A stretch of 63,343 nt of DNA, the filler included, from Octopus bimaculoides (Eukaryota): the NCBI RefSeq assembly GCF_001194135.2. It is 6 parts of 5 records of this genome, joined end to end, with 100 filler letters (N's around TTAATTAATTAA, not from the genome) between each part and the next. Parts side by side here need not be neighbours in the genome. Positions count along the whole stretch, not along the records: positions 1 to 20,141 come from NC_068983.1; positions 20,242 to 25,361 come from NC_068991.1; positions 25,462 to 38,638 come from NC_068998.1; positions 38,739 to 56,470 come from NC_068995.1; 2 more parts are not named here. The stretch is one strand, 5' to 3'. Numbering within the stretch: the first letter of the stretch is position 1; each line of letters opens with the position of its first letter. The notes under the pieces were generated by a model that worked only from the letters and a program-made list of their open reading frames with translations, made no database searches and had not been told where the DNA came from. The position numbers and the translations under genes were made by a program. Below, one piece after another: positions 9,961 through 48,275 of the stretch.

Positions 9961-10145
9961 ATCGTTGGCCATTTTCTTCCTCCGTCTTCCTTTTTATTGG
10001 ATTTTCCTCTGTTTCTGAAAGAGAGCGTTGCTCGAAGCGTTAAACCATCTTTCTTTCTATCCCTGAGTATCTATTAATACTTTTCATGTACCATGTCCTC
10101 ACGTGGTTGTTTTTTTTTTGTATTTGTTCACCTTCATTTTTGGGA
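9961..10145 (+). mobile_element. Short repeat resembling a Penelope terminal repeat, with hammerhead-like motif
   Basis: Contains gttt-CTGAAAGA-gagc-gtt-gctc-GAA-GCGT-T-aaac and ends in (AT)n; layout parallels the 18.5-kb units. Confidence 0.5.
10011..10045 (+). ncRNA. Degenerate minimal type-I hammerhead ribozyme motif
   Basis: Stem I gttt/aaac, stem II gagc/gctc; core CTGAAAGA...GAA; stem III GCGT instead of ACGT. Confidence 0.4.
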
Positions 10146-10554
10146 TTTAATATATATATATATATATATTAATCTGTGTGTGCATGTATGTATGTATGTA
10201 TACATCTACATAAAAAGAGGCATATATGCGTATCCTATATAGACTTGTCAACATGTATTTATTAGCACCAAAACATATTCAGCACATGAAGTGGACTACA
10301 CATATATTATCAGAACTCGAAGCTTCTCACAAAGTAGTATTCGTGACCATTTTGTATTACAACATACTCACGGTTGTAGAATTAAATATTTTTCTTTTAA
10401 CTTATAAAATGAAAACTTGTGTTCATCATGAAACATAATTTAGTGAAACCTGCTTTCAAAAGTTATAAGAATATCAACACGTGTATAAAAACCTTCTGAA
10501 TATGAAGACTTGGGTTCTAAAGGCAAAATATATAGAATCTCCTACATGACGATT

Positions 10555-10931
10555 TGGCACTCCGTCGCGTACGACGTCGAGGGTTCCAGTTGGTCCGATC
10601 AACAGAACAGCCTCCTCGTGAAATTAACGTGCAAGTGGCTGAGCACTCCACAGACACGTGTACCCTTAACGTAGTTCTCGGGGATATTCAGCGTGAAACA
10701 GTGTGATAAGGTTGACCCTTTGAATTACAGGCATAACAGAAACAGGAAGTAAGAGTGAGAGAAAGTTGTGGTGAAAGAGTACAGCAGGGTTCGCCACCAT
10801 CCCCTGCTGGAGCTTCGTGGAGCTTTAGGTGTTTTCGCTCAATAAACACTCACAACGCCTGGTCTGGGAATCGAAACCGCGATCCTATGACCGAGAGTCC
10901 GCTGCCCTAACCACTGGGCCATTGCGCCTCC
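10555..10931 (-). mobile_element. Near full-length tRNA-derived SINE (family D here)
   Basis: Minus head GGAGGCGCAATGGCCCAGTGGTTAGGGC...GGTTTCGATTCCC with A/B boxes; body shared with the 45382-45698 copy; CpGs retained. Confidence 0.85.
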
Positions 10932-12026
10932 ATGCATACCGATTAGCAATATCTATTTTAACAAAGCATACATCTCACAACGTTTATAGAAGTGAGAAAA
11001 CTGTTCAAACTTAATGTTTATTACAACTTAATATATTTGACCACTGCAGTAACACTGGAAATCTGCAAAACTAGAGTATATTAGAATAACTGAAGGAAGA
11101 TATTCGGGATAATTATGAGCAAATAGACAACGATATAATCTAGGTTTCGAATCTAAATCAAAACTGTCGCCCTTGATGATGGTTTCTGATGAAAGAAGTT
11201 TATGTGTTTACCAGTGCCCAGGGTATTAAAGATACCGTCTATTTCATGGAGGATGTCAAAAGTATTTAACCAGATTGATCCTATCAATTTACGTAGTGTA
11301 CACAAGCGAGACATCCTCAAAGCAGTGACCAGAATATATTCGACATTTTCAACCAAAAAGAGAATCTTAACCTGGAAGCTCGTCTTCTTAGAAACGGCAG
11401 GCAATTATCTATCAACACATAATTAATGATTCTCGAAGTATCGAAGAATTATACATCTAGTAGCCCATTCTCTGAAATAGCAAATAAGAACTGGAACGCA
11501 GTGTAATGTAATCCTCTATACAACCGTAACTGAAAAAAAGGAGAAGGTCAATATTGCAAAACTGTACATGTGGCTGATCGCACCTATACTATGACAGACT
11601 AGCATTAAGTCACCTGAAAACAGAAAGGACATATTCCACTATCTATTCTTGGAGACAATGTTTGAAAACATGAGAAGAGATCCATGGCTGGAACGCAATT
11701 GATAATATTTATACGCTGCCAGGGTTTTCTTGAGCTAAGCAGTCCCAGTAAACTATCATACTTAAGTGTTATATACAATAATTTTGTTAATTTGGTGGCA
11801 GTGCATCATAACAGCTTATCCAATTTCTAGCAAATAGAAACAAGTCGCCAAAGAATCAAATGCAGTGATCCTGTCAGAAAAGTAGCATTTAATATTTCTA
11901 CTAGCTCGAAGAATTTATTCAAATTTAAGAACTGGTTGAATTTAAGAACAGCTTGAACATGTCTTAATTAGAAAGGACGTAGTTGTTTAAGAATTGAATA
12001 TATTTGCCACCAACAGCGCATGTGAC

Positions 12027-12296
12027 CAGTGACGGACTGGCCATTTTGCCAGCTTTCCTGATGCAAGTGGGCCCTTGTGCCATTAGAATCCATATATGAG
12101 GGCCCATACCCTGAAGTTTGAGAAATTTTTATTCACTCCTGGAAGAATGCATTAATTATTTCAGCCTGGATGTTTGTAGACAGTTACAAAGAATACTTTT
12201 AACAAAAAAGAAAAAAAATAACGGATAGCATTGTAGTTGCGGGTGAGCCCTCTTAGTCTCCTGGCAACCAATATTTTTAGACCCAGTCCACCACTG
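12027..12296. mobile_element. hAT-type MITE, 270 bp
   Basis: TIRs cagtgacggactgg / ccagtccaccactg (2 mismatches in 14) with exact 8-bp TSD catgtgac at 12019-12026 and 12297-12304. Confidence 0.85.
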
Positions 12297-46796: not shown

Positions 46797-46879
46797 TGTT
46801 TTTTTTTTTTTACGTGGATAGCCGTGCCCTTCATTGACAGACAAGCAGAGTGATCCCCTGTCCAATTTTCTTACTACAC

Positions 46880-47040
46880 AAGGCTTTCTCCAGGTTCTGT
46901 CTACCAAATCCACTTACAAAGCTCTGGTCAGCCTGAGGCTATATTAGAAGACATTTGCCCAAGGTGCCATGCATTGGGACTGAACCTGGAGCCATGTAGT
47001 CGAGAAGCAAGCTTCTTACCACACGACCACACCTGCATCT
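46880..47040 (-). mobile_element. SINE family C
   Basis: gtctaccaaatccacttacaaagctctggtc...gcccaaggtgccatgcattgggactgaacctgg...ttaccacacgaccacacctgcatct. Confidence 0.8.
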
Positions 47041-47694
47041 AGAAATATCAATGTTTGTATAACATATATTGTCTTTAAGTCATCATCTTTCTGCTATTTT
47101 AGCTAATTTTTTTTCTTTCTTTTTTGTTTTACATTTAATCAGATACATGAATATTTATTTATGTACATGATTGCTTATGTATCATTGCAAACAATCCTTG
47201 CATGATGACCGCCACTGTGTCAACGAGACGGTAGTCTTGTACTCATATTACAAACTGACTTAATCAACTGGTTTATATAATGCAATTAAGGCTGGCATCA
47301 AATTTAATCCACCGTTTTCAGTTTCTCTGATTCATAATCTAATACCCCTTGCAGTATTAACAAACTATCCTCATTTCTCATTAGCATTCACGCAATCAAA
47401 GCTTCTAAACTGTCCTAACATCCTTATAAATTGTTCGTTAACTATTTATGTAATCATCTCAAAAGTGCATGTCTCTCTTTGATTCTTGTCCAAACAGAAC
47501 AAAATGTCCCCCAACTCCAATGTTTATCACAAAGTAATTGTTTATGCAGCACAAATAAACGTTTATAGCTAAATAATATTGTCGTATAAAACAGATCATA
47601 AAAATGCCAGCAGATATGGGTTTGCTGAGATAAATTGCTGGATATACAAGAAATACATACATACATACATACAAACATACATACATTCTTTGTT

Positions 47695-48007
47695 TTACAT
47701 TATTTACGTTATTTACATTTGATGGATATTTGTCCTCATCTTGTTTGTTGTTAACACAACATTTCAACTGATATACCCTCCAGCCTTCATCAGGTGTCTT
47801 GGGGAAATTTCGAACCTGGGTTCTCATTCCTTAGGTATTTTTCAATGTCATCATCATCATCATCATCATCATCGTCATCGTCGTCGTCGTCGTCGTCGTC
47901 GTCGTCGTCGTCGTCGTCGTCGTCGTCGTCATCGTCATCATTTAGGTCACTGCTTGGAATCGAACTCAGAAGCTTGAGGTTAGTAGCCTGTGCTTTTAAC
48001 CACTACG
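47695..48007 (-). mobile_element. tRNA-headed, hammerhead-tailed element (left, inverted copy)
   Basis: Reverse complement of 48008-48275, except for a different internal microsatellite and a ~10-nt 5' truncation. Confidence 0.8.
47753..47798 (-). ncRNA. Minimal type-I hammerhead motif (decayed stem III)
   Basis: gacac-CTGATGA-A-ggctg-gagggtatat-cagtt-GAA-ATGT-T-gtgtt. Confidence 0.55.
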
Positions 48008-48275
48008 GGCATATGGCGTAGTGGTTAAGAGCGCAGGCTACTAAACCCAAGATTTCGAGTTCAGTTCCAGGCAGTGACCTAAATAATAATAATAATAATG
48101 ATAATAATAATAATAATAATAATAACATCATCGAAACATACCTTAGGAATGAGAACCCAGGTTCGAAATTTCCACAAGACACCTGATGAAGGCTGGAGAG
48201 TATATCAGCCGAAACATTGTGTTAACAACAAACAAGATGAGGTCAAATATCCATCAAATGTAAATAATGTACATA
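48008..48275 (+). mobile_element. tRNA-headed, hammerhead-tailed element (right copy)
   Basis: Head GGCGTAGTGGTTAAGAGCGCAGGCTACTAAACC...GAGTTCAGTTCC (A/B-box-like), (AAT)n linker, then body with hammerhead. Confidence 0.8.
48178..48223 (+). ncRNA. Minimal type-I hammerhead motif
   Basis: gacac-CTGATGA-A-GGCTG-gagagtatat-CAGCC-GAA-ACAT-T-gtgtt; intact CUGAUGA/GAAA core, stems I and II pair, stem III ACAT. Confidence 0.65.

Follow-up and report, generated by a model that had tools for sequence, protein, structure and literature searches.

Two families of short hammerhead-bearing repeats in Octopus bimaculoides, one with a tRNA-like head and a Penelope-like insertion layout

Results

A 63,343-nucleotide stretch of DNA from Octopus bimaculoides (six parts of five records of assembly GCF_001194135.2, joined end to end; hereafter the window) contains two families of short non-coding repeats, A/B and C, which carry the standard minimal hammerhead ribozyme of Penelope-like elements (PLEs). 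The window is AT-rich (34.5% GC) animal DNA, rich in microsatellites, with 27 assembly gaps. It was scanned with a descriptor made of a stem I of at least 3 bp, CUGnnGA or CUGAnnGA, 0-1 extra nucleotide, a stem II of at least 3 bp, GAA, ACGU with at most one mismatch, and H. The scan returned exactly five sites, at 10011-10045 (+), 18620-18656 (-), 18846-18882 (-), 47753-47798 (-) and 48178-48223 (+), against a mean of 0.015 and a maximum of 1 in 200 dinucleotide shuffles (3/200 had one match). The five motifs picked out by an earlier reading of the sequence alone (the sequence-only reading) are therefore real. They correspond to about three insertions: one tandem pair, one inverted pair and one single copy. 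In both families the hammerhead lies 80-110 nt 5' of the far 3' end. Profile searches of the window found no copies of either family beyond those known, and Rfam gave no hammerhead family among the 150 window matches listed (of 192), nor in any of the 14 around family C.

Analysis of the five motifs indicated that the ribozyme itself is the ordinary, published Penelope form. The extra A ahead of stem II was seen in 4/5 motifs. The sequence-only reading had given the fifth an equivalent extra base; in register with the B copies, however, position 8 of 10011 is an A and 15.1 a G, and from its sequence its core reads as damaged. The ACGU palindrome ascribed to all five motifs is intact in only two, the others having GCGU (10011), AUGU (47753) and ACAU (48178). 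Neither the extra A nor the 4-nt palindrome makes this a new variant, since both already belong to the published consensus of the PLE minimal hammerhead ribozyme (min-HHR). As given in the accessible part of Cervera & De la Pena 2014 (PMC4209133), this consensus comprises CUGANGA-H, G10.1-C11.1, GAAA, a palindromic 15.2-16.2, U-H and a U-rich 5' flank.

Family C is represented by a single head-to-head pair (47696-48301) of a ~295-nt non-coding element. From the centre outward, each arm consists of a tRNA-like head, (RAT)n, about 50 nt, the hammerhead and a 3' segment, and the arms form inverted repeats with 87% identity over 180 nt. The left arm, C1 (47696..48007, -), has a tRNA-like head (47943-48007) lacking its first ~8 nt, (GAY)n and the hammerhead at 47753-47798; it stops at a short 3' end, equivalent to 48271, and has no tail. 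The head of the right arm, C2 (48007..48079, +), begins at tRNA position 1 and contains an A box (48014-48024) and a B box (48059-48067). It is followed by the hammerhead at 48178..48223 (+), with stem I, CUGAUGA, an extra A at 48190, a 6-bp stem II, GAA, ACAU (the family majority being ACGU) and a predicted cut after 48218. Only C2 continues through a 30-nt tail (48272..48301, +), which lies between two family-wide clusters of 3' ends, and it ends at 48301. Both window copies show CpG-type decay of the palindrome. The decayed forms, AUGU in C1 (47757-47760) and ACAU in C2 (48214-48217), are mutually complementary, which likely reflects deamination at two CpGs of a single DNA strand.

The tRNA-like nature of the head was examined by promoter boxes and by alignment. 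The A box of C2 is exact and its B box, 45 nt apart, has one mismatch that the family majority letters restore. A scan for A and B boxes gave three matches in the window including C2, compared with a shuffle mean of 0.14 (maximum 2 in 100). The heads of both arms align collinearly, end to end, to real tRNAs (62 tRNAs), with a score reached by 0/300 shuffles for either arm. Searching phage records with the head returned six chance matches.

The head-to-head pair with a 30-nt tail on one arm is the "inversion plus one-sided tail" signature of PLEs. PLE insertions often carry, at just one of their ends, a tail of 30-40 bp, together with a 5' copy in inverted orientation (Craig 2021), and this tail lies between two internal start sites of the reverse transcriptase (RT), 3' of the hammerhead (Frangieh 2024, PMC11167929). 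The two 3' ends of family C are defined and non-repeat, and the combination of a tail and target-site duplication (TSD) typical of long interspersed nuclear elements (LINEs) was not found at the one insertion in the window. The head resembling a tRNA, the inversion and the pair of 3' ends separated by 30 bases together indicate that family C was likely copied by a Penelope enzyme and not by a LINE.

Public reads showed that these ends are properties of the family. The family C stretch was present wholly or partly in 20/24 public runs listed, from organisms A, B and C, and 14 runs held at least half of its words. Four runs were mapped on 47940-48329, giving 26,767 and 38,168 DNA contigs, 565 contigs of run X16 and 9,942 RNA reads (run X24). 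Family C was very abundant in DNA runs of two organisms; summed depth reached ~5-6 million, versus 50-68 for single X1 contigs, a sum that is not a copy number. Loose 3' ends clustered at 48270-48277 (137+131 contigs in X1, 125+118 in X3, 859+593 reads in X24) and again at 48300-48301 (127+319, 127+363 and 1099, respectively). Loose 5' ends clustered at 48005-48007, the tRNA +1; the unaligned letters there finish with the start of the head in reverse complement (89 and 92 contigs, at a low agreement of 0.45-0.46). In a small number of contigs (4+2 in X1, 2+2 in X3), the head start is joined to body sequence on the opposite strand. The two heads together had roughly half the depth of the body, which 5' truncation would predict.

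The same data were used to define the family state of the ribozyme. The majority letter at 48216 was G (3.81 of 4.91 million depth in X1; 1352/2024 and 1501/2131 reads in X24), and ACGU is therefore the family state of C. The majority letters match the published min-HHR consensus letter for letter, in CUGANGA-H, G10.1-C11.1, GAAA-palindrome-U-H and stems I and II. A variant making up 24% of X16 depth, U48222A, breaks an outer pair of stem I. A 3-nt palindrome deletion (48215-48217) was found in 395/4283 RNA reads of X24 versus 0.4% of X1 contig depth, possibly because of one highly expressed locus.

The sequence-only reading proposed that the families use the ribozyme, and of cleavage use there was no sign. 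X1 depth over the predicted cut was 5.9, 6.2 and 6.6 million, without a step, and no loose end fell at the predicted cut among the 24 rows listed of 1080. Because depth does not drop there, the template was likely uncleaved RNA, and family C copies likely derive mostly from such RNA; cleavage at 48218 would leave the promoter and the priming site on different molecules. This is consistent with PAc, in which catalytic hammerhead mutants insert normally and hammerhead cleavage needs the protein (PMC11167929). RNA reads on family C (9942 of 12.9 million, from an unstranded library) look like read-through, 75% of them continuing into unlike flanks. They showed no end peak at the cut site, which in an unstranded library does not discriminate and which PAc likewise lacks. 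The idea that RNA is depleted of intact ribozymes was rejected: CpG-decayed letters made up 25-28% in RNA versus 8-13% in DNA contigs at ribozyme sites, but the excess also occurred outside them (35% vs 11% at 48164), which makes it a contig bias. A fold-back joint, 47976/48044, was seen in 130 RNA reads.

The remaining three motifs, presented by the sequence-only reading as part of three unrelated families, belong to one. Motif 10011 is identical to 18846 at 27/35 positions and has the same stem II arms, GAGC/GCUC. Outside the ribozyme, the 3' flanks align with scores of 47 and 52, above all of 1000 shuffles (maxima 44 and 40); alignment of the 5' flanks was not above chance (308 and 88 of 1000 shuffles). 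Because of the motif identity, the shared stem II arms and the 3' flank alignment, 10011 and 18620/18846 form one family, and by its sequence 10011 is a decayed relative of the other two. Copy A (9968..10148, +) is ~180 nt long, contains the decayed hammerhead at 10011-10045 and is followed by (AT)n. Copies B2 (18754..18944, -) and B1 (18529..18730, -) are the upstream and downstream units of a direct tandem, 88% identical and 226 nt apart from cut to cut. B1 has its hammerhead at 18620-18656, with a U6 core, an extra A, ACGU, H=C and a predicted cut after 18625; B2 has its own at 18846-18882, with a predicted cut after 18851. Units of this family are ~190-200 nt, U-rich, single or tandem, adjoin (TA)n and have no tRNA head, and the copies share a similar short 5' start motif. 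A 21-nt family B pattern had one match in metagenome contigs, a chance bacterial coding sequence. Lunse et al. reportedly described U6 hammerhead variants in 2017. The U at position 6 is found in both B copies; it departs from CUGANGA and is the only feature that differs from the accessible portion of the hammerhead alignment of Cervera 2014 (PMC4209133), in which no motif has it. Family A/B is likely a mini-PLE or a retrozyme-like unit, transcribed by read-through.

The sequence-only reading placed a Penelope RT at 56.9-58.4 kb, and a broken Penelope-like open reading frame (ORF) was confirmed there, at 56862-58392 (+). It includes RT, a CxxxxCxxC linker and GIY-YIG, is interrupted by many stops and frameshifts, and is followed by neither a hammerhead nor a pseudo-long terminal repeat (pLTR). 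Protein P0001 matches it in five pieces at ~31-42% identity (tblastn E 3e-69) and itself has an RVT_1 match below the Pfam cut-off and a GIY-YIG match above it. Pfam found no match in 7/7 relic fragments, so that the identity of the relic rests on tblastn to P0001 and on Pfam matches of P0001. Many of its closest relatives are in records of mollusc symbionts. The 3' end of the relic is missing and a mariner-like fragment starts at ~58440. This fragment (58440-59170), recognised by its motifs as part of a mariner/Tc1-like transposase (Pfam was negative), ends in a terminal repeat and TA and lacks its 5' part. The Cys linker of the relic is of the Neptune/Nematis type, as in Craig 2021. The relic shows that PLEs have been active in this lineage; it does not show that it was the partner of either family.

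PLE loci were also searched elsewhere. Searching genome contigs with P0001 gave 0 of 175 candidates and PLE alignment A1 gave 0 of 71 in viral contigs; A1 against genome contigs found 53 loci, which are DNA of other animals in genome bins. Many prokaryote genome bins (L002-L054) hold animal PLE sequence, likely as host contamination. The hammerhead descriptor matched in 7/53 PLE loci; three of these are one tandem contig and L007, AT-only, is probably spurious. On four separate contigs (L006, L012, L014-16 and L051), the motif has a C3-G8 core, an extra base and the palindrome, on the sense strand and 3' of the PLE RT match. The Penelope dependence proposed by the sequence-only reading is thus supported by the 30-nt tail on a single arm, by the inversion and by the position of the motif 3' of PLE ORFs in other animals; no sequence link to the relic was found.

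Discussion

Collectively, the data presented suggest that both families are non-autonomous elements copied by a Penelope-like RT/GIY-YIG protein and that family C is a tRNA-headed chimera resembling a short interspersed nuclear element (SINE). We give this whole account a probability of about 0.68. A stronger version, to which we would give slightly less than even odds, makes family C a true tRNA SINE with a Penelope-like partner rather than a LINE: a head transcribed by RNA polymerase III (Pol III) fused to a PLE hammerhead-tail module, inserted as a palindrome and present at very high copy (of the order of 10^5 if the summed depth is read literally). Such elements may represent a wider unrecognised class (compare the G003 contigs described below).

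A possible mechanism can be outlined from these elements. Pol III would transcribe family C from the tRNA +1 through the 3' module, which the PLE protein would bind before nicking AT-rich DNA. Reverse transcription would start at either of two internal sites, yielding the short end or the tailed end, and a second, inverted copy would be joined at the 5' end. The hammerhead would likely be a passenger, part of the module recognised by the PLE protein.

Several results weigh against this account. Comparison of the family profiles by nhmmer with PLE sequences, a check suggested by the sequence-only reading, found nothing in the relic, whose 3' end is missing, and only a chance match, L001, among 54 loci; an autonomous PLE sharing the 3' module was not found among the relic and the 53 PLE loci from other animals. 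The link between head and body is the weakest step, because contigs break at the microsatellite: it is based on one window insertion, ~13 RNA reads across the repeat and a few contig joints, and the stretch is not bridged by any of the contigs listed. The C head gave no tRNA match in Rfam, and a tRNA profile detected C1 only at E 0.11 and missed C2. No clear TSD was found at the one C insertion in the window. The RNA reads had no start or end peak indicative of a Pol III transcript, although the library was unstranded. The absence of TTTT from family C is weak evidence, as ~17% of 299-nt stretches lack it. In a check for covariation on unphased letter frequencies of family C (40 of 112 rows listed), a hand count gave 1/32 at constrained positions versus 9/128 at others (Fisher p=0.69).

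The alternative that survives best, unlikely as we judge it, is that every hammerhead here is what 5' truncation has left of the pLTR of an autonomous PLE, and that the tRNA head belongs to a separate, simple SINE that ends in (AAT)n and served as PLE insertion target, PLEs preferring microsatellites. Most min-HHRs of animals stand alone and have been interpreted as truncated PLEs, and pairs on opposite strands, 100-700 bp from each other, are on record (Cervera 2014). The halved depth of the heads and the read gap of the contigs at the head-body repeat tract also agree with this explanation. Against it, an inverted copy of the head start precedes the loose 5' ends at the tRNA +1, and there are contigs in which the head start is connected to body pieces in inverted orientation. 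In addition, the A/B copies open with a similar short 5' motif, as discrete units would, and not as expected from random truncation.

Somewhat less probable still is mobilisation of these repeats as cleavage-dependent non-LTR retrozymes, whose tandem transcripts cleave themselves as dimers and close into circles, which then serve as templates for reverse transcription. Family B offers the best fit. B2 and B1 are two direct tandem units with complete (U6) motifs, 226 nt apart and within the retrozyme size range, which agrees with the "two consecutive units" criterion of Li 2026; such a tandem was found in B only and not in A or C. Every pair of a B double hammerhead can also form geometrically. 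However, the forced double fold lies ~14 kcal/mol above the minimum (-23.6 vs -37.4 kcal/mol, in a folding model that leaves out the non-canonical pairs of the catalytic core), B unit ends lie ~95 nt on each side of the predicted cut and not at the cut, and U6 departs from CUGANGA. The arms of family C are on opposite strands, and a cis hammerhead dimer is therefore impossible: a transcript running through both arms would fold into a long hairpin (-341 kcal/mol). The RNA reads, from the unstranded library, have no ends at the C cut site, and 8/9 Xenopus dimers assayed did not cleave (Li 2026). The least likely explanation is that the inverted C pair is a DNA element, either a miniature inverted-repeat transposable element (MITE) or of the foldback type, or else a tRNA SINE mobilised in the ordinary way by a LINE, which had acquired a piece of a PLE; the arms are indeed long inverted repeats and SINEs are defined as LINE-dependent (Goubert 2022), but only one arm bears the 30-nt tail, which makes the pair asymmetric, head and body have many separate junctions, and 3' of the tail there is no poly(A) or tandem repeat, nor a TSD.

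Non-autonomous PLE derivatives are a known kind of element, and those with hammerheads are known or have been proposed (Cervera 2020, Li 2026, Craig 2021); short non-autonomous Penelopes have been described in butterflies. With the PLE pLTR hammerheads (PMC4209133), the two families share CUGANGA-H and the extra nucleotide, G10.1-C11.1, the 4-nt palindromic helix III, the U-rich 5' flank, solo copies and opposite-strand pairs 100-700 bp apart; family C differs by its added tRNA-like head and family B by U6. PAc, a Poseidon element of Anolis (PMC11167929), has in common the two internal RT start sites 3' of the hammerhead, a cut dispensable for insertion and the lack of RNA-seq ends at the cut. 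It is autonomous and protein-coding and belongs to the Poseidon clade, whereas the relic in the window has a Neptune/Nematis-type linker. Non-LTR retrozymes (Cervera 2020, PMC7229834; Li et al. 2026, 10.64898/2026.07.22.740005) are likewise short non-coding units with type-I hammerheads and a proposed PLE machinery, and the B1/B2 tandem dimer resembles them. They occur in tandem arrays with mostly canonical hammerheads, unlike family C, which is dispersed, inverted and tailed and has a tRNA-type promoter. The accessible part of Li 2026 mentions neither tRNA nor molluscs, and according to Goubert 2022 retrozymes possibly depend on PLEs and might be regarded as one kind of SINE.

A Pol III-type promoter and a hammerhead also occur together in the short non-autonomous retroelements SMalpha/Sjalpha of schistosomes (PMC6765202, PMC8490949). 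Those hammerheads are canonical, actively cleaving and arranged in tandem repeats, and the accessible review accounts report no PLE tail or inversion signature. Family C shares the 5' tRNA head, the A and B boxes, the short length and the very high copy of tRNA-derived SINEs, which include three octopus families (Ohshima & Okada 1994). Such SINEs are described as LINE-dependent and as having TSDs (Goubert 2022), which sets family C apart. The literature searched contained no account of an element that combines a tRNA head with the tail and inversion typical of PLEs; Repbase, Dfam and SINEBase sequences were not compared, so family C may already have an entry there as a SINE. In the accessible parts of these sources, Penelope is not mentioned by Kojima 2024, neither Penelope nor the hammerhead by a mollusc SINE paper, and the hammerhead not by Marino 2022; SINEBase and PMC11014351 were equally uninformative. 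In Bonar 2026, most recently active SINE families are listed as unclassified. The tRNA-headed, likely PLE-mobilised form is thus, within this literature, the part not found described.

SINEs are defined as parasites of LINEs; if a tRNA SINE of high copy number is indeed driven by a Penelope RT, that definition would widen and part of the SINE load of this genome would be reclassified. The ~170-nt segment from hammerhead to tail would then be a natural minimal substrate for probing recognition by the PLE protein and the role of the ribozyme. At such abundance, palindromic insertions could also be a large source of double-stranded RNA.

Other repeats in the window and in animal-derived contigs

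Further repeats were recorded in the window. A tRNA-like element at 7929-8412 (profile match 8107-8039, -, E 1e-4) contains a 71-nt direct repeat (7929-7999 / 8246-8316) and a 96-nt inverted repeat (7997-8092 / 8319-8412). This layout combines a partial tandem and an inversion, like PLE insertions, and no hammerhead was found in it. A young 211-nt inverted repeat (97.6% identity) at 37843-38555 surrounds a 291-nt GC-richer core, has short tandem repeats at its right end and also showed no hammerhead. Other tRNA-like heads lie on the minus strand at 10862-10926, 45638-45686 and 56127-56198, and one tRNA was above the Rfam cut-off (35 bits, Pro-TGG); ARAGORN at low threshold made 147 calls in the window and was uninformative. 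Dispersed repeats without a hammerhead match were seen at 25674-25830, 40146-40647, 44827-45029, 46564-46797, 53684-54381 and 61556-61897, as were further families at 24521-24645 and at 39574-41394 / 60854-61412. In animal-derived contigs (L089-L099, of G003 and G001), many tRNA-containing repeats are arranged head-to-head or in tandem, including partial tandems and one-sided extensions, their units having no hammerhead. The repeat period of L088 is ~244 nt, and a minimal hammerhead lies near the L090 repeats at ~1079.

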